Source: Candidatus Staskawiczbacteria bacterium RIFOXYB1_FULL_38_37 (GTDB lineage: Bacteria > Patescibacteriota > Minisyncoccia > Minisyncoccales > Staskawiczbacteraceae). Taken from it: 64,000 bases of DNA. The DNA lies in assembly GCA_001822075.1 (NCBI GenBank), contig MHPK01000004.1, forward strand, positions 7,979-71,978. Direction: 5' to 3'. Of the stretch, positions 3,019-51,775 are shown piece after piece. The notes beneath the pieces are model-generated. The model ran no database searches and had not been told where the DNA came from. It saw nothing but the letters and a program-made list of their open reading frames with translations. Numbering within the stretch: position 1 is the first letter of the stretch; each line of letters starts with the position of its first letter. The translations under genes and the position numbers were made by a program.

Positions 3019-5103
3019 ATGCCGTACGAACCAAAAAAAGTTGAAAATAAAATTTATCAGTTCTGGGAAGAGTCTGGCTTTTTTAATCCCGATAAACTGC
3101 CCGCCCGTCATAAAAAGCCATACACTATTGTTATTCCCCCGCCGAATGTTACGGGCGAACTTCATATCGGACACGCTCTAAACGCAACAATACAGGATAT
3201 TTTGATAAGGCAGAAAAGAATGCAGGGGTTTAAAACTTTATGGCTGCCGGGAACAGACCATGCTGGAATTGCAACCCAAAATGTTGTTGAAAAAAAATTG
3301 AGGAAAGAGGGAAAAACAAGGTTTGACTTGGGCCGTGAAAAATTTATTGAAGAAGTATGGAAATGGAAAGAAGAATACGGAAATAAAATTTTAAACCAAT
3401 TTAAAAAACTTGGCTCTTCGTGTGACTGGTCAAGAACAAGGTTTACAATGGACCAGGGGTATTCTGACGCAATCAAAGAAGCTTTTTTGCATTATCATAA
3501 AAAAGGCTGGATTTATAAAGGAAAAAGAATTGTTAACTGGTGCAAAAGGTGCGCCACATCGCTTTCTGATTTAGAGCTTGAATATAAAGAAGAAAAAGGA
3601 AATTTGTGGTTTATAAAATACCCTGTTAAAGACCCGCCCGCCGGCGAGGCAGGAGGCGGATTTATCACGGTGGCAACAACAAGGCCAGAAACAATGCTGG
3701 GCGACACAGCTGTTGCTGTAAACCCAAAAGATAAAAGATATAAAAATTTAATTGGCAAAACAGCTGTCCTGCCTTTGGTAAACAGGGAAATTCCAATAAT
3801 ATCTGACATTTTAATTGATTCTAAATTCGGCACAGGGGCTGTAAAAGTAACGCCAGCCCACGACATAACCGACCAAGCAATCGGAGAAAAGCATAAATTA
3901 GAGGCAATACAAGTTATTGATGAAAAAGGAAGAATAATAAACAGTCCTGAAAAACCTGCCCGCAGCGGCTTCGCCACAGGCGATGCAGGCGGGTATAACG
4001 GATTGAAAATAGACGAAGCGAGAGAAAAAATTATTGAATATTTAAAATGCCAAAATCTTTTAGAAAAAACAGAAAATTACACCCGCCAAGTGCCAAAATG
4101 CTACAGGTGTTCAACAACAGTAGAGCTTATTCCCTCTATGCAATGGTTTTTAAAAATGTCAGAGCTGGCAAAATTAGCTGAAAAGCCTGTAAAAGCTGGA
4201 AAAATAAAATTTCACCCTAAAAATTTTGAAAAGCCATATTTTGATTGGCTAAAAAACATAAAAGATTGGTGCATTTCAAGGCAAATTTGGTGGGGCCATA
4301 AAATTCCAATAGAAGGAGAAACCGATGTTTTAGACACATGGTTTTCTGCGGCCTTGTGGCCTTTTGCAACTTTGGGCTGGCCCGAAAAAACAAAAGATTT
4401 AAAAAATTATTATCCCACTGCTGTTTTGAGCACAGCCAGAGATATTATAAATTTATGGGTTGCCAGAATGATTTTTTCCGGAATGGAATTTATGAAAGAA
4501 ATCCCCTTCAGCCATGTTTATGTGCACGCCACCGTTTTAACCCGCGACGGCCAAAGAATGTCAAAAAGCTTAGGGACAGGAATTGACCCTGTAAAATTAA
4601 TTGAGGAGTTCGGAGCTGACGCTGTAAGATTTGGGATTGCCTTCCAAATTATGGGAAACCAGGACATAAAATTTGTCACAGACAATATTTTAATGGGCAA
4701 AAAATTCTGCAATAAAATATGGAATGCTTCAAAATTTGTTGAATTAAAAAACGGAAAAGAAAAATATGACGGTAAAAAGCCTTATGCTAAAAATAAAGCT
4801 GATAAAGCAATTTTAAAATCATTGGAAAAAACAGAAAAATCAGTTAGCAAGTGCTTGGAAAATTTTGAATTCGGAAAATCAGCCCATATTTTGTATGATT
4901 TTTTCTGGCATGATTTTTGCGACAAATACATAGAAGAATCAAAAAAACAGGAATCTGAAAACACAAACAAAATTTTAATGTACGTTTTGTTGGGCTCTAT
5001 AAAGCTTTTGCACCCGTTTATGCCCTTTATAACAGAAAAAATTTACCAGCAATTGCCCCTGAAAAATAAAAAAGAGTGTATAATGATAGAAGAATGGCTT
5101 TAA
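3019..5103 (+). CDS. valS: Valine--tRNA ligase (short form lacking C-terminal coiled coil)
   Basis: PPPNVTGELHIGHALN (HIGH), KMSKSLGTG (KMSKS), VATTRPETMLGDTAVAVNPKDKRY. Confidence 0.9.
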   Translation: MPYEPKKVENKIYQFWEESGFFNPDKLPARHKKPYTIVIPPPNVTGELHIGHALNATIQDILIRQKRMQGFKTLWLPGTDHAGIATQNVVEKKLRKEGKTRFDLGREKFIEEVWKWKEEYGNKILNQFKKLGSSCDWSRTRFTMDQGYSDAIKEAFLHYHKKGWIYKGKRIVNWCKRCATSLSDLELEYKEEKGNLWFIKYPVKDPPAGEAGGGFITVATTRPETMLGDTAVAVNPKDKRYKNLIGKTAVLPLVNREIPIISDILIDSKFGTGAVKVTPAHDITDQAIGEKHKLEAIQVIDEKGRIINSPEKPARSGFATGDAGGYNGLKIDEAREKIIEYLKCQNLLEKTENYTRQVPKCYRCSTTVELIPSMQWFLKMSELAKLAEKPVKAGKIKFHPKNFEKPYFDWLKNIKDWCISRQIWWGHKIPIEGETDVLDTWFSAALWPFATLGWPEKTKDLKNYYPTAVLSTARDIINLWVARMIFSGMEFMKEIPFSHVYVHATVLTRDGQRMSKSLGTGIDPVKLIEEFGADAVRFGIAFQIMGNQDIKFVTDNILMGKKFCNKIWNASKFVELKNGKEKYDGKKPYAKNKADKAILKSLEKTEKSVSKCLENFEFGKSAHILYDFFWHDFCDKYIEESKKQESENTNKILMYVLLGSIKLLHPFMPFITEKIYQQLPLKNKKECIMIEEWL

Positions 5104-23940: not shown

Positions 23941-24423
23941 ATGGCAAAATTATTAGAACAATTCAATAAATCGCAGTTGAAAAAATTGCCCGAAATAACT
24001 ACGGGTGATATTATTAAAGTGCACCAAAAAGTAAAAGAAGGGGGTAAAGACTTGCCTGCCGGCAGGCAAGGAAAAATACAAATCTTTGAAGGTTTGGTTA
24101 TTGCCAAAAAACACGGCAAGGGAATTTCAGCTACAATTACTGTAAGAAAAATTGCAGGCGGGGTGGGCGTTGAAAGGATTTTTCCCATACATTCACCCTT
24201 AATAGATAAAATAGAAGTTTTAAGGCACGGAAAAACAAGAAGGGCAAAGCTTTATTATTTAAGAACAGCCAAGGGTAAAAAATCAAAATTAAAAAATAAG
24301 GAATTTGCAGAGGTTATAGCCGACGAACCAGAAGAATCACCAGCAGAAGAACCCGCCGAAAATTCTGAAGATAATCAGGCGGGCGAGATGCCAGCAGAGA
24401 CAGAACAGGAAAAAACAGAATAG
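23941..24423 (+). CDS. rplS: 50S ribosomal protein L19 with acidic C-terminal tail and an in-frame palindrome insertion
   Basis: [13 protein letters not shown]...[26 protein letters not shown]...[10 protein letters not shown]. Confidence 0.9.
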
Positions 24424-24695: not shown

Positions 24696-24753
24696 AAAAT
24701 ATTTTGGTTTCTGCAGCTAAAGCGGGCTTGCCCGCCGAAGCTCGCAAGCGTAG

Positions 24754-24827
24754 GCGGGTGTAGCACAGTGGTAGTGCATCTGGTTGCCAATCAGAGTACG
24801 TGGGTCCGATTCCCATCACCCGCTCCA
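24754..24827 (+). tRNA. tRNA-Gly (anticodon GCC), CCA encoded
   Basis: Acceptor GCGGGTG/CACCCGC, anticodon loop TTGCCAA. Confidence 0.85.
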
Positions 24828-30023: not shown

Positions 30024-31013
30024 CTATAAGACGTCCCATATCTCAGAGTCTTCAGAACCTAAAACCCATGCAGAAAACCCTCTCAAATTATTTTGTTTCA
30101 CAATATTAAGCTTGAGTTCAAAGCTTTTTCTGTTTTCGTACCAAATTTTATAGCTTGCGCCCCAAACAGAATAACTCAGCCACGGCGCTCCCAAAAGCCG
30201 GTCAAACCCGTATTTGCACAAAAAGTTATCCATTGTGTATTTTACTAAGCTATAATTCCCGCTGGAAACTCTTTTTAAAGTTTTTTGATTCCAACCCCAA
30301 TAATAAAAGGGGATTCCCATTGATAATTTTTCTGAAGAAATTTTGTCTTTTACATAATTTAAAACCCATTTTGTGTACAGCACAGAAGAGGTGGGCCCGT
30401 ATGACTTTGGGTCGTCGTAGGTCATTAAGCTTATAAAATCAACTGCATCTGAAATTCTTTTATAGTCAAAAGCTCCGCCCCAATTATAATAAAAATCGCT
30501 GTCTTCGTAAGCTGAAGTCCTTGAAACAGCAGCTATGCTCAAAATTAAATTATTTTTATGCAGTTCTTTGGATGTTTTTTCAACAAAGGCTGAATAAAGG
30601 TCTTTGTCTTTGTAATTTATATGTTCAAAGTCAAATTGCCAGCCAATGTAATTGTTTTCTTTAGCTAACTCAACCATGCTTGCAATAATCTTGTCTTGCG
30701 CCTCGCCAGACAAAAGCAAGTTGTGTATTATTGGCTGCAAAAATTTAGAGTTTACCACCAGGGGCATTACTTTTAAATTATTATCTGCAATAACTTCTTT
30801 TAATTCTTTGCTCAAAGACCCGTATAAGTTCAAATCAGATTTTACAGCATAAGCCTGCGGAGCTAAAATATCAATCTTTTTTGCATTTTTTTGTATTATT
30901 GGAATAGATATTTCTTCATTTTTCTCTGACAAATAAAAAATCTTCTCCATGCCAAAGGCAGAAACAGGCGTTAAAAACAAAAACAATATTAAAAAGTATA
31001 TAATTTTTTTCAT
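30024..31013 (-). CDS. Secreted glycoside hydrolase family 18-like protein
   Basis: Signal peptide. GWQFDFE resembles the GH18 DxDxE catalytic strand. Confidence 0.6.
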   Translation of the reverse strand: MKKIIYFLILFLFLTPVSAFGMEKIFYLSEKNEEISIPIIQKNAKKIDILAPQAYAVKSDLNLYGSLSKELKEVIADNNLKVMPLVVNSKFLQPIIHNLLLSGEAQDKIIASMVELAKENNYIGWQFDFEHINYKDKDLYSAFVEKTSKELHKNNLILSIAAVSRTSAYEDSDFYYNWGGAFDYKRISDAVDFISLMTYDDPKSYGPTSSVLYTKWVLNYVKDKISSEKLSMGIPFYYWGWNQKTLKRVSSGNYSLVKYTMDNFLCKYGFDRLLGAPWLSYSVWGASYKIWYENRKSFELKLNIVKQNNLRGFSAWVLGSEDSEIWDVL

Positions 31014-31261
31014 AATAAATGTTTTTTAATAAAAGCTCTACCAGACCCAGATTTTAAATATTTTTCAAATTCAAATGCTTTGTATTGATTACTAAATGCT
31101 ATATAAAAATCCAATTCAACAGGCAGTCTATCTTTTGTTGCATCAACTTGTCCTTTTGTATGTCTATTAATTCTGTCTTTTAAATTATTTGTGCAACCCA
31201 CATAGAAACCATCTTTACATTTTAAACTATAAACGCGTAATACATAAAATTTTAGGCGGAT
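31010..31261 (-). CDS. GIY-YIG nuclease (UPF0213-like) without a canonical start codon
   Basis: The ORF track starts at GTG 31201, but the GIY-YIG N-terminus (IRLKFYVLRVYSLKCKDGFYVGCTNNLKDRINRH) continues upstream to an in-frame stop at 31262 with no ATG, GTG or TTG. Confidence 0.5.
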   Translation of the reverse strand: MRLKFYVLRVYSLKCKDGFYVGCTNNLKDRINRHTKGQVDATKDRLPVELDFYIAFSNQYKAFEFEKYLKSGSGRAFIKKHLL

Positions 31262-31336
31262 TTATCACGCCGAAGCCACGCCAAAAGGGCGAAGCCCGCC
31301 ATCGCTTTGTAAAGCAAAGCTTTGGCGTGGCGAAGG
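31258..31336. repeat. Intergenic GC-rich composite palindrome (largest member of the GC-rich element family)
   Basis: ccacgccaaa...tttggcgtgg outer arms and gctttg-taaa-gcaaagc inner arms. Contains cgccgaagcc, gaagcccgcc and caaagctttggcg cores. Confidence 0.6.
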
Positions 31337-31421
31337 CGGAGGGGGTGAGATTCGAACTCACGAGGCCTGTAAAGACCGCGGTTTTCGGGACCGCTCCGTT
31401 AAACCACTCCGGCACCCCTCC
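31337..31421 (-). tRNA. tRNA-Ser (anticodon CGA)
   Basis: Reverse complement: acceptor GGAGGGG/CCCCTCC, anticodon stem GCGGT/ACCGC with loop CCCGAAA, long variable arm. Confidence 0.85.
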
Positions 31422-35702: not shown

Positions 35703-36263
35703 ATGTCAGAAAATTTTAAAGATTTATATCATTTTATAGACTTGGCTAGGGCCAATAGAAAATACCCGGATAATACAGCAAACAATTTAAAGTCTGCCTT
35801 AAAAATTTTTGAGAAAGAGCTTAATGCAGACGAGTCAAAATCAATAAGTATGATAGAAAACAGCATAGAAGAGATATTCAGAGATGTTGCTATTGCAAAT
35901 AAAAACAAAAGCATCTTATCTTTAAACACCTATAAAGCCCGCCTGCTAAAAGTTATAAATGACTACAAAAAATACGGCGTAGATCCTACAAAAATACAAA
36001 AGTGGACTCCAAAATTAAGGCCTGCCCGCCATAATGCGCCAGCTTTAGGCGGGAAATCCACAGGGGTGTTAATTAAAAAAGATAAAACAGATAAAGAAAA
36101 TATAAACATATCTAATTTTATCGACTCTCCTGTGGAAAGCTCCCACAAAATAGAAATTGTTTTAGAATCTGGGGCAAAAGCTGCCCTATCAATCCCCCGC
36201 GAATTAAATAAAAGCGATGCCGAAACCATAAAAGCTGTGATAAACTCTTTGACTAAGCTGTAA
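35703..36263 (+). CDS. Hypothetical protein carrying an in-frame GC-rich element
   Basis: 186-aa ORF with no recognisable domain. Contains PARHNAPALGG, encoded by the 33-nt element. Confidence 0.5.
   Translation: MSENFKDLYHFIDLARANRKYPDNTANNLKSALKIFEKELNADESKSISMIENSIEEIFRDVAIANKNKSILSLNTYKARLLKVINDYKKYGVDPTKIQKWTPKLRPARHNAPALGGKSTGVLIKKDKTDKENINISNFIDSPVESSHKIEIVLESGAKAALSIPRELNKSDAETIKAVINSLTKL
36021..36053 (+). repeat. 33-nt GC-rich palindromic element (copy A, in-frame)
   Basis: cctgcccgccataatgcgccagctttaggcggg, with terminal cccgcc/ggcggg pairing. Confidence 0.8.
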
Positions 36264-36266
36264 AAC

Positions 36267-36294
36267 TAAAAGCCGCGGCAATGCCGCGGCTTTT
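36267..36294. terminator. Bidirectional terminator between convergent genes
   Basis: aaaAGCCGCGGC-aat-GCCGCGGCTttt. Confidence 0.75.
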
Positions 36295-36301
36295 GAACAA
36301 A

Positions 36302-37834
36302 TTACCTTGCGTATTCGACTACGCGGGTCTCTCTCATTACTGTCACCTTGATTTCGCCAGGATATTTTAGCTCTTCTTCAATTTTTTCAGCAATCTGCTT
36401 TGCTATTTTTGCAGTTCCCAAGTCATCAACCCTGTCAGACCTCACGAACACCCTTATTTCTCTGCCTGCCTGAATAGCATAAGTTTTTTCAACGCCTTCA
36501 AACTTGTTTGCGATATCTTCTAAGTCCTTCAGCCTTTGCAAATAGTTTTCCAAAGTGTCTTTCCTTGCCCCGGGACGCGACCCTGAAATTGCGTCAGCAA
36601 CTTTTACAATTACAGCTTCTAAGGTTTCGGCAGGGTAGTCGTCGTGGTGGGCTTTCATGGCTTTTATAACAGCTTCCGACTCCCCAAATTTTTCTAAAAT
36701 TTTAATTCCAATGTCAATGTGAGAGCCCTGAACCTGCTGGTCAATTGCCTTTCCTATATCGTGCAAAAGCCCTGCTCTTTTTGCCACCTGGCTGTTGGCT
36801 TTTAACTCTTCAGCAATGGCTTCTGCAATCAAAGCTACCTCCATTGAGTGAAGCAAAACATTCTGGCCATAAGATGTTCTGTAATAAAGCCTGCCTAAAA
36901 TTTGCACCAGCTTGTCGTTTAAGCCAATCACTCCTATATCGTAGGCTGCTTTGTCGCCGGCTTCTTTTATTTTTTGTGCAATTTCTGTTTTTGCCTCTTC
37001 AACCTTCTCTTCAATTTTTGCAGGCTGTATTCTGCCGTCTTGTATCAGCTTATCTAAAGCCACTTTTGCAATCTGCCTTCTTATTGGATTAAACCCTGAA
37101 ATCACAACAGACTCAGGGGTTTCGTCAACAATAAGCTCAACTCCTGTAAGCTTTTCAAAAGCCCTTATATTTCTGCCTTCTTTTCCTATAATCCTGCCTT
37201 TTATATCTTCATTCTGAAGCACAATTGTGGTGGTTGTGATTTCTTGCGTTTGGGGCACAGCGCACTTTTGTATGGCAAGCGCCACAATTTCTTTTGCCCT
37301 TGCTTGAAGCTTCTCTTGGCCCTTTTCTTCCAGTTTTTTCATTCTTTCTAAAATTTCTTTTTCTTTTTCTATTTCAACAAGCTTCATAAGCTCTTTTTTG
37401 GCGTCTTCCCTTGAAAGGTCGGCAACTTTTTCTAATTTATCTTCTGCTTCGCTCCTTAATTTTTCCAAATCTTCCTTTATAAGTTTTAATTTTTCGCCCT
37501 TGTCCTGCAAGTCTTTTTCTTTTTGCTCAAAAGAAGAAATTCTTTCGTTTAAAATGCCTTCTCTGTTAAGCAAAACCTGCTGGGCTTTCAAAAACTCTCT
37601 TCTTCTTTCATCAATTTCGTTTTGAGCCTTGTCTAAAATGTCAGATGCTTTTGCCTCAGCTTTCTTAATCATTGCAGACGTTTCTTCTTTAACTTCAGCA
37701 ACTCTTTTCTGCAGTTTTGCCTCCAAGGTTCCTGCTCTTCTTTTCGCTATGTTTTGCCTGATATAATAGCCCAAAATAGAGCCTACTATCAGGCAGAGAG
37801 CTATGCCGGCTGTGTAAAAAATAATTTGATTCAT
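36302..37834 (-). CDS. rny: Ribonuclease Y
   Basis: N-terminal TM, coiled coil, KH (IIGKEGRNIRAFE) and HD (LLHDIGKA) domains. Confidence 0.9.
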   Translation of the reverse strand: MNQIIFYTAGIALCLIVGSILGYYIRQNIAKRRAGTLEAKLQKRVAEVKEETSAMIKKAEAKASDILDKAQNEIDERRREFLKAQQVLLNREGILNERISSFEQKEKDLQDKGEKLKLIKEDLEKLRSEAEDKLEKVADLSREDAKKELMKLVEIEKEKEILERMKKLEEKGQEKLQARAKEIVALAIQKCAVPQTQEITTTTIVLQNEDIKGRIIGKEGRNIRAFEKLTGVELIVDETPESVVISGFNPIRRQIAKVALDKLIQDGRIQPAKIEEKVEEAKTEIAQKIKEAGDKAAYDIGVIGLNDKLVQILGRLYYRTSYGQNVLLHSMEVALIAEAIAEELKANSQVAKRAGLLHDIGKAIDQQVQGSHIDIGIKILEKFGESEAVIKAMKAHHDDYPAETLEAVIVKVADAISGSRPGARKDTLENYLQRLKDLEDIANKFEGVEKTYAIQAGREIRVFVRSDRVDDLGTAKIAKQIAEKIEEELKYPGEIKVTVMRETRVVEYAR

Positions 37835-37842
37835 AAATAACT

Positions 37843-37915
37843 AAATTCGAAATTCGAATTTCGAAATTCGAAACTTTAAATTTGTTTCGGATTTCGGATT
37901 TCGCGCTTCGGATTT
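37843..37915. repeat. ttcgaaattcgaa dyad repeats plus tttcggat x3, upstream of rny
   Basis: aaattcgaaattcgaatttcgaaattcgaaac...tttcggatttcggatttcgcgcttcggatttt. The same ttcgaaattcgaa unit occurs inside tsaD. Confidence 0.6.
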
Positions 37916-37985
37916 TCTAACAAAATAAGCCCACTTCTCAGTGAGCGCGCACAAAACGTATTTTCAATTTAATTTTTAGAAGATT

Positions 37986-38570
37986 TTATTTGGTTGCCCC
38001 TATAACCTCGTCAATCAAGCCGTATTTCTTTGCCTCTTCAGCTGACAAATAAAAATCCCGGTCGGTGTCTTTTTCCACCTTAGATAACGGCTGGCCTGTG
38101 TGTTTTGCCAAAATGCTATTTAGCTTTTCTTTCATTTTTACAATCTGTTTTGCAGTAATCTCAATGTCTGCAGCCTGTCCTTGCATTCCTCCGGCAACCT
38201 GGTGCAAAAGTAGTTCTGCATTTGGCAAAGAAAACCTTTTACCTTTTGTGCCTGACGCCAAAATTACAGCTGCCATAGAGGCTGTAAGTCCGATGCATAT
38301 GGTAGAAACTGGGCATTTTAAATACTGCATTGTATCATAAATTGCCAGTCCTGCTGTAACCGAACCTCCGGGGCTATTAATGTAAAGCTTAATATCTCTT
38401 TTTGGGTCTTTTGACGCTAAATAAAGCATCTGGGCTATAACCACATTTGCATTTAAATCAGTAACTGCGCCCGCAAGAAAAATTATACGCTCTTCTAAAA
38501 GCCTTGAAAATATATCGTATGCGCGCTCACCGCGCTGTGTTTTTTCTACAATAGTTGGTACTATTGGCAT
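37986..38570 (-). CDS. clpP: ATP-dependent Clp protease proteolytic subunit
   Basis: [36 protein letters not shown]. Confidence 0.95.
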
Positions 38571-38587
38571 TTAAATTTTTATTAGTA

Positions 38588-39892
38588 TTATTCAGAAAAA
38601 CTTTCCAATTTTTGGAATACTTTTTCATTATATAACACGCCTTTAGTATACTCTTTTAATTGCTCAATGTCAAACTCATTTTTTGTTGATTTTGATACTT
38701 CTTCTTCAACTTCTGCATCTGAAACTTCAATATTTTCTCTTTTGCCAAGCTCTCTTAAAACTAAAAAACCTTTAAGCCGTTTTTCGGCTTCTTTTTGAAA
38801 AGTTTGGGTTAATGCTTCTTCTGTTTGTTTTACAGCCGACAAATACTGCTCAAAAGTAATTTTCATATTCTGGGTAACTTTATTTTTTAAATCTTCCATT
38901 AGTCTTTGTTTTTCGTAATCTACCATTGATTCTGGCAACTCAACTTTTACTTTTCCTGAAATTTTTTCTAAAATTTCTCCTCTTTTTCTTTGTTTTTCCT
39001 GTTCTGTTTTTTCTATTATAATGCCTTCTTTCATGCTTTGTTTTAAAGTAACTAATGTGTCAAAATTACCCATGCCTTTTGCAAACTCATCATTAATTTC
39101 AGGCAATTCCATTTTTTGAACTGATTTTAATTTCACTTTAAAAATTTTACCCGCCTGATTGCCCGAAGGGCTTTCGGCGGGCGACTTCTTTTCCCCGCCC
39201 AAAGCTTCGGCATTATGGCGGGCAGGCTGCCAATCCATTTCAAATATTTTTTCTTCACCAGCTTTCATTCCAACAATTGCATCTTCAAAGCCTCTTATAA
39301 ATCCGCCCTCTCCTAAAACAAAGTGGTCGCGCACAGATTTACCGGCATTTATATCTCTATTTTCATAATTTATTTCAACAAAGTCGCCTTTTTCAGCCGG
39401 CTCATTTTTTAAAGTCATTTTTGCCCTGCTTTTTTGCAGATATTTTAAGGAATCTTGCACTTCTTCTTCTGTAACAGAGATTTCTTTTCCCGCCGACTGG
39501 CGGATAATTTTTTTTGCGATTTCTTTGTAATTTTCTGGTAATTCAACGTCCGGTAGAACAGTAATCACGGCTGTAAAAATAAACGGATTTCCTTTTGCAA
39601 TTTTTACAATCTTAACTTCCGGCTGGCCTATTGGCTCTAAATTATTATCTTTTACATAATCAGAATAAACATGCCTTACAGCATGGTCGCCAGCTTCCAT
39701 TAACAAACTTTCCGGCTTTATTTTTTCTTCAACCAATTTATTCGGCGCCTGCCCGGGCCTGAACCCGTCAACTTTTACATGGCTTTTCATATGCGACAAA
39801 GCATGCTCAAAATGGCGCTCAAATTCTTCCGAAGTTAATTCGAATGTTATTTCTATCTGTGACTTTTCTAATTTTTTAGATTTTATATCCAT
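38588..39892 (-). CDS. tig: Trigger factor, with ~26-aa GC-rich element insertion in the PPIase region
   Basis: MDIKSKKLEKSQIEITFELTSEEF..., FKBP-type core GFEDAIVGMKAGEEK. Inserted segment PARHNAEALGGEKKSPAESPSGNQAG. Confidence 0.85.
   Translation of the reverse strand: MDIKSKKLEKSQIEITFELTSEEFERHFEHALSHMKSHVKVDGFRPGQAPNKLVEEKIKPESLLMEAGDHAVRHVYSDYVKDNNLEPIGQPEVKIVKIAKGNPFIFTAVITVLPDVELPENYKEIAKKIIRQSAGKEISVTEEEVQDSLKYLQKSRAKMTLKNEPAEKGDFVEINYENRDINAGKSVRDHFVLGEGGFIRGFEDAIVGMKAGEEKIFEMDWQPARHNAEALGGEKKSPAESPSGNQAGKIFKVKLKSVQKMELPEINDEFAKGMGNFDTLVTLKQSMKEGIIIEKTEQEKQRKRGEILEKISGKVKVELPESMVDYEKQRLMEDLKNKVTQNMKITFEQYLSAVKQTEEALTQTFQKEAEKRLKGFLVLRELGKRENIEVSDAEVEEEVSKSTKNEFDIEQLKEYTKGVLYNEKVFQKLESFSE
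39194..39226 (-). repeat. 33-nt GC-rich palindromic element (copy B, in-frame in tig)
   Basis: The minus strand reads cctgcccgccataatgccgaagctttgggcggg, which is 29 of 33 identical to copy A in the same reading frame. Confidence 0.8.
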
Positions 39893-44382: not shown

Positions 44383-45675
44383 TTATTCTTTTTCAGATTT
44401 TTCTTCGGCAGGGGATTCTTCTGTTTTTTCTTCTGATTCTTCAGAAGCTTCTTTTTTAGATTTTTTTGTTTTTTTGGCTTTCTTCGGTTTTTTCCCTAGG
44501 TCGCCTTCGGCGTCGGCGGGTTCTGCTGGAGTTTCACTTGTTTTAATGTCTATTTTCCAGCCGGTTAAATTGGCTGCGAGGCGGACATTTCTGCCGTCTT
44601 TGCCAATGGCTAAACTCAACTGGTCTTCTGGCACAAAAACAACAGCTGTATTTTTCTCTCCAACTTTTACTTCAACAATTTTAGCCGGAGCCAGAGCATT
44701 TGCAATAAATTTTTCCGGCTTTTCCTGCCATTGTATCACATCAATCTTTTCTCCGCCAAGCTCATTAATTACTGCCATAATTCTTGTGCCTCTTTGCCCA
44801 ACGCAAGCGCCAATGGGGTCAACTCCTTCTTCTTCTGAAACAACTGCAATTTTTGTGCGAAAACCGGGCTCTCTGGCAATTGATTTTATGACAACTGTGC
44901 CAGAAGCAATTTCAGGCACTTCAAGCTCAAATAATTTTGAAATTAGTTTTGGATAAGCTCTTGAAAGCATAACAACAGAGCCTTTTGGGGTGTCTTCAAC
45001 TTTTAAGATATAAAGTTTTAATCTTTGGCTGGGCCTATAAAATTCCCCTGGAATTTGCTCTTCTCTGCTTAAAATTCCCAAAGTTTTTCCAATATCAATA
45101 AAAACCGTGTGGCCCTCAACTCTCTGCACAATGCCCGAAATTATTTCGCCCTCTCTTGAGCGGTATTCTATGGAAATTGTTTCTTTTTCTGCCTCTCTGA
45201 TTTTCTGTAAAATAACCTGCTTTGCTGTTTGGGCGGCAATTCTGCCATAATCCTGTTTTGACACCAAAGGAATTTCTATTTCTTCTCCAATTTTAATTTT
45301 AGGATAATCTTTTTTGGCGTCTTCTGCCATTATGTGTTTTTCTCCGTTAAAAACAAACTTTTTAGGCGCTTCGCCCTCGCGGACTTCTTCTGCATCTTTT
45401 CCCGCCGCAGCGGGATCCCGCCCATGGCGGGACATCTCTTCAATTTCTTCTTCTGTATAAAGCATTGATTTATCTACAACCAGCTTTACCTGCCAAAACT
45501 TGCAGTCTCCTGAGACCGGGTTAAATTTTGCCTTAATTTTCTGGCCTTTTTTGCCATAATCTTTTTTGTAGGCCGTAGCAATGGCAGCCTCAATTGTTTC
45601 TATAATTTTTTCAGGCGAAATTCCTCTTTGCTCGGCAATCTGCCCCAAAGCGCCTTTAAATGATTTTATATCCAT
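44383..45675 (-). CDS. nusA: Transcription termination/antitermination factor NusA with acidic C-terminal tail
   Basis: S1 and KH domains (GACVGQRGTRI, AIGKDGRNVRLA). The ATG at 45675 is preferred over the TTG at 45690, which lies in the repeat. Confidence 0.9.
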   Translation of the reverse strand: MDIKSFKGALGQIAEQRGISPEKIIETIEAAIATAYKKDYGKKGQKIKAKFNPVSGDCKFWQVKLVVDKSMLYTEEEIEEMSRHGRDPAAAGKDAEEVREGEAPKKFVFNGEKHIMAEDAKKDYPKIKIGEEIEIPLVSKQDYGRIAAQTAKQVILQKIREAEKETISIEYRSREGEIISGIVQRVEGHTVFIDIGKTLGILSREEQIPGEFYRPSQRLKLYILKVEDTPKGSVVMLSRAYPKLISKLFELEVPEIASGTVVIKSIAREPGFRTKIAVVSEEEGVDPIGACVGQRGTRIMAVINELGGEKIDVIQWQEKPEKFIANALAPAKIVEVKVGEKNTAVVFVPEDQLSLAIGKDGRNVRLAANLTGWKIDIKTSETPAEPADAEGDLGKKPKKAKKTKKSKKEASEESEEKTEESPAEEKSEKE

Positions 45676-50813: not shown

Positions 50814-51775
50814 TGAAAAAATATTTTATATTTTTATTTTGGCTTGCCTTTTTTCCAGCCCTTGCCTTTGCATCAGAAAAAGTAGACATTAACACGGCTT
50901 TGTTAGAGCAATTAGACCAGATAACAAACGTGGGGCCGATAACTGCGCAAAAAATAATTAATGCAAGGCCTTATTCTTCGCTTGATGACTTGCTAAAGGT
51001 TAATGGGATAGGACAAAAAACTTTAGACAAAATAAAAGAGCAAGGCATAGCTTGCGTTAATTGCGGAGCAAGCAACGAGGAGGCCCGACCTCCTGAGCCC
51101 GCCGCAGCAGCGGCGGGCGAAACTGCAGTTTCAAGTTCTGGGGAGGTCGGGCCTCCAATTAGCTATCCTGCGGGAGTTTTTATTAACGAGGTTTTGGCGA
51201 ATGCCGAAGGCCCGGACGAAGAAAACGAATTTATTGAGCTTTATAATTCAAATAATTTTGAAATTGATTTGTCTGGCTGGAAAATATCAGATTCTGCTGG
51301 CAGTATAACAAATTATATTTTTCCAAATGATAAAAAAATGGGGCCTTTTGGATTTTTGGCGCTTAAAAGGCCTGAAACAAAAATAACTTTAAATAATGAC
51401 CAAGACCAGTTAACTCTTTATTCTCCAGATAAAGCTGTAAAAGATACTATGTCTTACAATTCAGCTCCCAACGGCCAGTCTTATAATAAAACCGCCCCTG
51501 GTTGGCAATGGAGCTTAAACTTAACTCCAGGATCTGCCAATTCAATAGCCCGCCAGGCCCTGAGCGAAAGCGAAGGGTTGCTAAAAGACAAAAAAAATGA
51601 TAATAATATCATAGAAGACAGCTTAGCAGGCTTAGGCTATCCTTTAAACCAAGAAGGCATAAAAACGCAAAATCCTTGGTTTTTATTTTTTATGGCTTTA
51701 GCTATAACAATATTCTCTGCGGTTGTCGTATTATTTATTAAACTAAAATTTAAAAAGAACCATGTCAGGACATAG
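50813..51775 (+). CDS. Secreted ComEA-like HhH DNA-binding protein fused to a lamin-tail domain, C-terminal TM
   Basis: Signal peptide MKKYFIFLFWLAFFPALAFA. HhH VDINTA...LDQITNVGPITAQKII...VNGIGQKTLDKI. LTD VFINEVLANAEGPDEENEFIELYN. Start set at the ATG overlapping the ruvB stop (TAATG). Confidence 0.7.
   Translation: MKKYFIFLFWLAFFPALAFASEKVDINTALLEQLDQITNVGPITAQKIINARPYSSLDDLLKVNGIGQKTLDKIKEQGIACVNCGASNEEARPPEPAAAAAGETAVSSSGEVGPPISYPAGVFINEVLANAEGPDEENEFIELYNSNNFEIDLSGWKISDSAGSITNYIFPNDKKMGPFGFLALKRPETKITLNNDQDQLTLYSPDKAVKDTMSYNSAPNGQSYNKTAPGWQWSLNLTPGSANSIARQALSESEGLLKDKKNDNNIIEDSLAGLGYPLNQEGIKTQNPWFLFFMALAITIFSAVVVLFIKLKFKKNHVRT
51079..51156 (+). repeat. 78-nt nested GC-rich palindrome inside the ComEA-like gene
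   Basis: ggaggcccgacctcc...ggaggtcgggcctcc outer arms (15 nt), inner gcccgccgc-agca-gcggcgggc, then gaaactgcagtttc. Confidence 0.8.

Follow-up and report, generated by a model that had tools for sequence, protein, structure and literature searches.

A 33-nt hairpin repeat read in frame in genes of Candidatus Staskawiczbacteria, with a small GIY-YIG nuclease as its likely partner

Two copies of a GC-rich hairpin repeat of 33 nt, here called B, lie in frame inside two unrelated genes of Candidatus Staskawiczbacteria bacterium RIFOXYB1_FULL_38_37, a member of the candidate phyla radiation (CPR) or Patescibacteria. The stretch analysed comprises 64,000 nucleotides of contig MHPK01000004.1 (positions 7,979 to 71,978; hereafter the window, in whose coordinates positions are given) and contains, besides the two copies of B, about eight related hairpins, among which its inverted partner A, as well as a gene for a single-domain GIY-YIG nuclease. 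Copy 1 (CCTGCCCGCCATAATGCGCCAGCTTTAGGCGGG) occupies 36021..36053 on the plus strand, inside a hypothetical open reading frame (ORF; 35703-36263) that has no Pfam or NCBIfam match, and is read as PARHNAPALGG. Copy 2 (CCTGCCCGCCATAATGCCGAAGCTTTGGGCGGG) occupies 39194..39226 on the minus strand, inside the trigger factor gene tig (38588-39892), and is read as PARHNAEALGG. Both begin at codon position 1 (phase 0) and agree at 29 of 33 positions; three of the differences fall in a 4-nt loop and one in an internal loop, all of them unpaired. The protein stretch that spans the B-derived segment reads ...DWQPARHNAEALGGEK.... An initial annotation made from the letters of the window had reported the positions, identity, phase and translations of both copies and had described their hosts as AT-rich and unrelated; all of this is borne out by the sequence, with a GC content of 36.7% for the window versus 63-66% for the B elements.

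The initial annotation took B for a small palindromic element that should exceed its composition-matched expectation. In the window it does: the pattern CCCGC-N10-40-GGCGGG has 13 strand-matches at 7 sites, where shuffled sequence would lead one to expect 0.17. Since a covariance model of the B family in addition recovers copy 1 with E = 5.5e-10 and copy 2 with E = 2e-10, chance is excluded for B. The segments also recur in near-identical proteins from independent assemblies, P0001 (98% identity) and P0241 (99%), so they are no assembly artefact (P followed by a number denotes homologous proteins, L followed by a number loci from other genomes or metagenomes).

Whether folded as RNA or as DNA, both copies are predicted to form the same nested hairpin. 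A 6-bp outer stem (CCCGCC/GGCGGG), noticed before as a pair of complementary termini, is followed by an internal loop, three A-T pairs, a 2-bp GC stem and the 4-nt loop. The first four bases (CCTG) are unpaired and the remaining 29 nt are palindromic: B consists of a conserved, non-palindromic 5' tag of 4 nt (CYTG) and an imperfect palindrome of 29 nt. In the 24 copies that have no A next to them, the bases from -5 to -1 upstream are G, C, C/T, T and G in 14, 19, 16+7, 15 and 21 cases, respectively, and all these positions lie outside the pattern by which the family was searched. Variation is concentrated in the hairpin loop, and longer loops extend the inner stem by complementary sequence (GCCC/GGGC, GCGC/GCGC), which argues for constraint on nucleic-acid structure and not on the peptide. 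At the gathering threshold Rfam identified only tRNAs and no family for B. A known RNA family was also sought with an E-value threshold around the elements and at one locus with A, B and a GIY-YIG gene, but the resulting microRNA-precursor matches were spurious, being far below gathering scores. Explanations as CRISPR repeat, terminator or hammerhead-like motif were dropped, since each locus has one copy only and both a T-run and a catalytic core are missing.

Ortholog alignments of tig and valS, which the initial annotation had called for, show the segments to be missing from nearly all orthologs. The typical trigger factor, representing most of the 120 orthologs, has 422 aa and reads ...F-PENSPQKNLAGKEG-DFKV...; the insert of B plus A is absent from 116 of the 120, including the closest relatives (76-79% identity). 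PARHNAxALGG followed by four residues and a second GC-rich segment is carried only by P0001 and by P0006 and P0017 (64-68%), a separate and more distant pair relative to the trigger factor of the window. Mapped onto an AlphaFold model of the latter (mean predicted local distance difference test score, pLDDT, 82.8), the insert corresponds to residues 225-247, between two strands of the FKBP domain. This is the sole segment with a pLDDT below 50 and hence the only disordered loop of the model. For the ORF at 35703-36263, the modal ortholog (173 aa) misses 11 residues, and a filled and an empty allele can be compared directly: ...AAA TTA AGG|33 nt|AAA TCC... in the window versus ...AAA CAA AAG|AAA TCC... 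in L061, which is 81% identical. As the difference is exactly 33 nt, the unit entered as a block that included CCTG and without target duplication. Copies of B enter new sites in this manner, as a clean block. Together with the 40 of 40 ValRS representatives that lack the 13-residue insertion encoded by the valS hairpin described below, these data support the lineage-specific insertion that had been proposed.

In other lineages the same ORF contains a different hairpin, read as PRLRQGLGGQ, three codons upstream of the B site, therefore this loop has been hit repeatedly. A candidate ortholog in L009 was rejected, the adjacent ORF there being unrelated. Relatives also have further short, GC-rich insertions, likewise in frame, in these proteins, for instance LPAGRQEKW and an insert of 38 residues in the tail of NusA (L009:4644-6107) and AGRPWRASPL among the trigger factors P0040, P0066 and P0089, which suggests that several hairpin families are active in these genomes.

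Beyond the window, the family was identified by means of the pattern CCCGCCATAATGC-N2-8-GCTTTNGGCGGG, with 24 fixed bases, in seven species-representative genomes and 33 metagenome contigs. These are labelled Saccharibacteria, Staskawiczbacteria and, for two metagenome-assembled genomes (MAGs), Gammaproteobacteria. Duplicate removal left 34 instances, and B is found at about 30 independent sites in metagenomes of Saccharibacteria and Parcubacteria. It represents a small hairpin repeat, non-autonomous and scattered through the genomes of CPR bacteria. Two contigs with A-B pairs, L002 and L003, carry the Gammaproteobacteria MAG label; either they are mis-binned CPR sequences or the element occurs outside the CPR. 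Neither the pattern nor the GIY-YIG protein linked to B has a match in IMG/VR, for which reason a phage vector was discarded.

Thirteen independent coding contexts have B on the sense strand and in one frame, read (P)ARHNAxALGG. Their hosts are AlaRS, DprA, DnaG, GyrB, LigA, a NUDIX hydrolase, L18, TpiA, trigger factor (twice) and three small ORFs. All 13 have the 4-nt loop, versus 4 of 17 non-coding copies (Fisher p = 2e-5), where loops range from 3 to 8 nt; in genes the unit is therefore 33 nt. The remaining two sense frames carry TAA or TAG. Sense exceeds antisense orientation by 13:1 (p = 0.002), the sole antisense copy (L042:8843-8876) being read as PPKALHYGGW, with a 3-nt loop, in a 918-aa UvrD/AddB-like ORF. 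Replication-strand bias was rejected as cause of the orientation: in the window the copies lie on opposite strands at a distance of 3 kb, each oriented like its own gene, so orientation tracks transcription or translation instead. Persistence in genes depends on frame and length, that is on whole codons without stop, in practice the 33-nt sense form, and the copies in genes sit in disordered surface loops, where they are read as PARHNAxALGG. This census with frame and orientation, which the initial annotation had suggested, upholds its claim that the element survives only in frame. Its further claim of a single tolerated frame describes 13 of 14 coding contexts and fails for L042, hence the rule is strong but not absolute.

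In tig, B is accompanied by hairpin A (CCCGCCGAAAGCCCTTCGGGCAATCAGGCGGG; 39150..39181, minus strand), which lies 12 nt downstream and is read as PAESPSGNQAG. As RNA it folds with -22.1 kcal/mol (z = -4.3), and its reverse complement is aligned over the full length by the B covariance model, with an E-value of only 0.51. The same composite of B, 12 nt and A is found in tig of L009 and L010. A further copy of A (24352..24383, plus strand) forms part of the C-terminal tail of ribosomal protein L19 (23941-24423), whose Pfam domain ends before it, at residue 120 of 160. Coding copies of A use a single reading frame (PAxS...NxAG). At non-coding loci A immediately precedes B, and since A, when reverse-complemented (CCCGTCAAAATGC...GCTTTTGTCGGG in some variants), looks like B, the two related hairpins form a divergent pair there; in tig and GyrB, B, spacer and A form a convergent pair.

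The 39-nt hairpin of valS (3955..3993, plus strand; gene identified by NCBIfam) is read as PARSGFATGDAGG. It had been put forward as a third relative of B, and indeed it lies where stated and shares with B the frame and the termini, CCTGCCCGC at the 5' side and GGCGGG at the 3' side; the interior is unrelated, and the covariance model gives E = 0.38, which is not significant by itself. ValRS (3019-5103) has 694 aa here versus about 880 aa in homologs, a gene for a PrsW protease follows directly, and a second GC-rich extra segment at 3621-3663 (PPAGEAGG) is missing from most representatives. A B-like nested hairpin in NusA (45401..45431, minus strand; CCCGCCAT-GGGCGGGATCCCGC-TGCGGCGGG) is read as SRHGRDPAAAG, in the frame of B, and the segment differs from that in NusA of L009 and L011, being five residues longer. 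Between tRNA-Phe and tRNA-Gly lies the hairpin CTTGCCCGCC...GGCGGG (24727..24760, plus strand; B covariance model E = 0.2), the 3' arm of which is the 5' acceptor strand (GCGGGTG) of tRNA-Gly(GCC); this arrangement upstream of tRNA-Gly is also seen in L012. The 3' arm GGCGGG thus coincides with native sequence in the tRNA-Gly leader, as it does, through Gly codons, in valS and in hairpin A of tig. Finally, an 80-nt nested hairpin with a CCCGCC...GGCGGG core (51078..51157, plus strand) in the linker of a ComEA-like HHH/LTD protein is almost perfect (RNA fold -62.9 kcal/mol, z = -9.1) and probably the same kind of element; the reading frame continues through it and gives EEARPPEPAAAAAGETAVSSSGEVGPP. 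About eight of the ten related hairpins of the window are inside coding sequence, roughly the coding density; genes are not avoided. In TsaD, a GC island at 1690-1725 was discarded as element because it encodes the native YPGGP motif. Next to it, at 1728-1800, a direct repeat (aaattcgaaattcg..., KFEIRK...KSKFEIR) encloses the GC-rich stretch NPTGNPPAGVK, which may be an insertion with local duplication.

The GIY-YIG nuclease gene of the window (31013..31245, minus strand) was identified with a profile E-value of 2e-15 and a Pfam GIY-YIG E-value of 1e-11. It is separated from tRNA-Ser(CGA) (31335..31421, minus strand) by a nested GC-rich hairpin cluster (31255..31334, minus strand) that lies directly downstream of the tRNA and shows, by eye, a B-like stretch (CCCGCCAT...GCTTTGGCGTG, plus strand). 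The order tRNA-Ser, hairpin cluster, GIY-YIG gene is repeated in L047, L051, L054 and L057 (about 2280-2500 in each), where the conserved cluster likewise begins directly after the ...CTCCGCC end of tRNA-Ser. Intact homologs have 77 aa and read MYYVYSLKCKDG...; members of this subfamily are found some 110 nt downstream of a tRNA-Ser with anticodon GCT, GGA, TGA or CGA, depending on the genome. In L045 the cassette occurs without tRNA, near a serine recombinase.

A second subfamily, homologous to the first (33% identity, E = 2e-11), is linked to B itself. GIY-YIG ORFs of 77-104 aa, single-domain and starting with MYYVYVL..., lie 17-92 nt from B in L003, L012, L017, L026, L032 and L044, and of ten GIY-YIG matches in all retrieved DNA seven adjoin B, which corresponds to six independent loci since L038 duplicates L012. 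Pfam detected only the GIY-YIG domain in these proteins (77-90 aa), while NCBIfam yielded sub-threshold matches only. The AlphaFold model of P0122, a homolog of the window gene product (pLDDT 93.7), is a compact beta-beta-alpha-beta-alpha-alpha fold with three strands and three helices. At the loci of the B-linked subfamily, A-B pairs are embedded in partial tRNA copies that are broken in the D loop or the anticodon loop, with complete tRNAs downstream. In L012:7560-8060, for example, nucleotides 1-35 of tRNA-Gly(CCC) are followed by A, B, the GIY-YIG gene and a complete tRNA-Gly(CCC). In L003, L017 and L024 the tRNA fragment ends within the D loop, and the sequence that closes the D-stem (GAGC) follows B immediately (cassettes at L003:4990-5460, minus strand, and L017:4290-4760). 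In L002:1340-1470 (minus strand) a second tRNA-Arg(CCG), which is degenerate, holds an A-B pair in its D loop. A tRNA intron, be it a D-loop insertion or a group I intron such as that of PMC13011429, was considered and rejected: the tRNA pieces on either side are incomplete copies, searches with intron models gave no match and complete tRNAs follow further downstream.

We interpret B as a non-autonomous hairpin repeat dispersed in CPR bacteria that has the small single-domain GIY-YIG nuclease as its likely partner, and put the probability of this reading at roughly 60%. The nuclease would probably bind or cut B as single-stranded DNA (ssDNA), much as Ssn nucleases do with their NTS/SRM hairpins (Chenal et al. 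2025, Nat Commun, PMC11893778). The enzyme could be the driver of hairpin spread, as REP-associated tyrosine transposases (RAYT) may be for repetitive extragenic palindromic sequences (REP), or a mere user of the recognition site. Speculatively, the GIY-YIG protein may drive insertion itself, and hairpin loops might be its preferred targets, an idea suggested by the breaks in D and anticodon loops of tRNAs and by the nested elements in NusA and at 51078-51157.

Several observations weigh against this reading. The ATG of the window GIY-YIG gene is out of frame because of a 2-nt indel after codon 3: at 31222-31245 (minus strand) the gene reads ATGTATTAC-GC-GTTTATAGT, versus MYYVYSL in intact homologs. 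Since this form is present on dozens of contigs it is no assembly error, and the gene may be inactive or have an unusual start. The B-adjacent subfamily was not found in the 64 kb, and no bona fide B flanks the gene that is present, the covariance model having no match in the cluster at 31255-31334. The nearest solved structure of P0122 is UPF0213 protein BH0048 (1zg2), with 32% identity. The SRM consensus HGTCWY..YYVSBRH..WNVSBRG..RNCYNB, built from 29 genomes of four phyla (PMC11893778), has no match on either strand of the window, and NTS are rarely found in genes (2%; PMC11893778), whereas the CPR hairpins are not excluded from them. Furthermore, as a tRNA is near almost every such locus, GIY-YIG genes and hairpins may be drawn to tRNAs independently.

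That last point is central to the alternative that survives best, though we hold it to be unlikely: B as a hairpin resembling REPs or miniature inverted-repeat transposable elements, mobilised by another enzyme (RAYT or a Y1 transposase of the IS200/IS605 type) or by host replication and repair, with the adjacency to GIY-YIG genes a by-product of accumulation at tRNAs. Insertion without target duplication fits such an origin, and size, imperfect palindrome, oriented 5' tetranucleotide and inverted pairs all resemble REPs and bacterial interspersed mosaic elements (BIME), while nearly all loci with GIY-YIG gene plus hairpin have tRNA genes or fragments. Yet no transposase-like gene lies beside any copy of B, although the window was not exhaustively scanned for Y1 enzymes, and the sole recurrent neighbour is the GIY-YIG gene. 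In four loci B is 17-27 nt from the start of that gene, which is tighter than a shared neighbourhood predicts.

The GIY-YIG genes could on the other hand be free-standing homing endonucleases that target tRNA genes, with the hairpins as processing or insulating parts of their cassettes and the solo copies in genes as repair scars. Cassettes do lie beside partial tRNA duplications (tRNA-Gly in L012; the D-loop breaks of L003, L017 and L024), one subfamily follows four different tRNA-Ser isoacceptors, and SegB of T4 is described as a GIY-YIG homing enzyme in a tRNA cluster (PMC2330249). Known GIY-YIG homing enzymes, however, are unlike these proteins of 77-90 aa without DNA-binding domain. Moreover, solo copies of B are complete, oriented units with a conserved tag and not random pieces of a cassette, and none were found in the viral contigs of IMG/VR. 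We therefore regard a homing origin as rather improbable.

Even less credible is selection of the hairpin for a function, either as regulatory or stabilising stem-loop in the mRNA or as the PARHNAxALGG loop in the protein, in place of selfish spread. The bias to sense strand and one frame (13/14), conservation across phyla and the essential genes among the hosts would all be expected from it. But the element sits in disordered loops of proteins that are unrelated to one another, and close relatives do without it; B is also frequent outside genes, where its loop lengths would disrupt a reading frame, the variable position is the hairpin loop and not a synonymous site, and Rfam has no family for it. 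That the peptide is ancestral or convergent and the nucleotide similarity a coincidence of GC-rich codons can be dismissed, for although a GC-rich stem yields Pro, Ala, Arg or Gly codons whatever its frame, and the native PENSPQKNLAGK loop can be aligned with a portion of hairpin A in tig, the 24 specified bases recur unchanged in different phyla, both in unrelated genes and outside coding sequence, and orthologs without the segment together with the exact 33-nt insertion refute it for B.

Returning to a dispersed hairpin repeat with a GIY-YIG partner, a bolder version may be sketched, which we consider doubtful. An undescribed mobile hairpin system of CPR bacteria would be driven by the GIY-YIG protein, an ssDNA nuclease that inserts 33-nt units into hairpin loops and beside native GGCGGG half-sites. 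It would recognise hairpins or split half-hairpins, with D and anticodon loops of tRNAs and older elements as targets, and its units would freely colonise essential genes and thereby give rise to lineage-specific protein loops across phyla.

Many lineage-specific indels in conserved CPR proteins, such as trigger factor, NusA, ValRS, AlaRS, GyrB, LigA, L18 and L19, may stem from one class of hairpin repeats and not be ordinary indels. PARHNAxALGG and the 33-nt pattern offer a marker by which such insertions can be recognised in alignments, in phylogenies and in predicted structures. CPR bacteria are believed to rely on the uptake of DNA, and one may speculate that a pair of hairpin and ssDNA nuclease bears on the way in which they handle incoming DNA.

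Short GC-rich hairpins are also known from AT-rich yeast mitochondrial genomes, as GC clusters and byp elements, and there too they are found in genes (var1; the byps of Magnusiomyces). B is similar in that GC-rich hairpins spread through an AT-rich genome, including its coding genes. The mitochondrial elements differ in being organellar, and byps are skipped by the ribosome and not translated; they are not known to have an associated GIY-YIG gene of such kind.

With REP/BIME and RAYT, and with IS200/IS605, the CPR elements share short imperfect palindromes, a conserved 5' tetranucleotide, inverted pairs, a flanking position to the gene of the presumed acting enzyme and insertion without target duplication. 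REPs are extragenic, whereas most window copies are intragenic. The RAYT partner is a Y1/HUH transposase, whereas the recurrent flanking gene here encodes a GIY-YIG protein, and the REP tag is GTAG-like versus CYTG here.

Rickettsia palindromic elements (RPE), of some 100-150 bp, were cited as precedent in the initial annotation. As a functional analogy this is fair: both are lineage-specific palindromic repeats that lie in frame in unrelated genes, where their translation adds segments to the protein surface. B does not belong to the RPE family, however, having 33 nt, an unrelated sequence, a host from another phylum and a candidate partner enzyme in sight. Our literature search found no paper linking RPE to GIY-YIG proteins and no description of such in-gene hairpin elements in CPR bacteria, in agreement with the view of the initial annotation that the element is uncharacterised there. 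Rickettsia is listed among the SRM-rich genomes (PMC11893778).

The closest comparison is with the Ssn proteins, nucleases of about 94 aa whose sole domain is GIY-YIG. Their targets are the NTS/SRM repeats, hairpins of 20-50 nt, which they bind only in the form of ssDNA and cut strand-specifically, at a position just upstream, without cleaving dsDNA or RNA; a few conserved upstream nucleotides give orientation, repeats flank the ssn gene and copies run into the hundreds (PMC11893778). Here, a single-domain GIY-YIG gene of about 80-95 aa is predicted from sequence, hairpins of 20-50 nt flank it (B or A-B within 100 nt at six independent loci), a hairpin cluster precedes the window gene and its homologs, B has an oriented upstream tag (G-C-Y-T-G) and further copies are dispersed. 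The likeness is thus set by gene type, size, flanking hairpins, tag and dispersal, while placement in the cd10448 clade and cleavage of ssDNA are putative. What differs is the hairpin sequence, the tight link to tRNA genes and tRNA fragments and the host, CPR bacteria being nowhere mentioned in the earlier paper (PMC11893778). Chenal and collaborators likened the Ssn architecture to IS200/IS605 and REP/RAYT and left open whether the hairpin repeats behave as mobile elements (PMC11893778). The CPR system bears on this question, as it offers dated, clean insertions with filled and empty alleles, unlike the mostly intergenic repeats of Neisseria. With its association of GIY-YIG genes and tRNAs and its inverted partner A as the new features, it would be a gene-invading CPR variant beside the Ssn systems.

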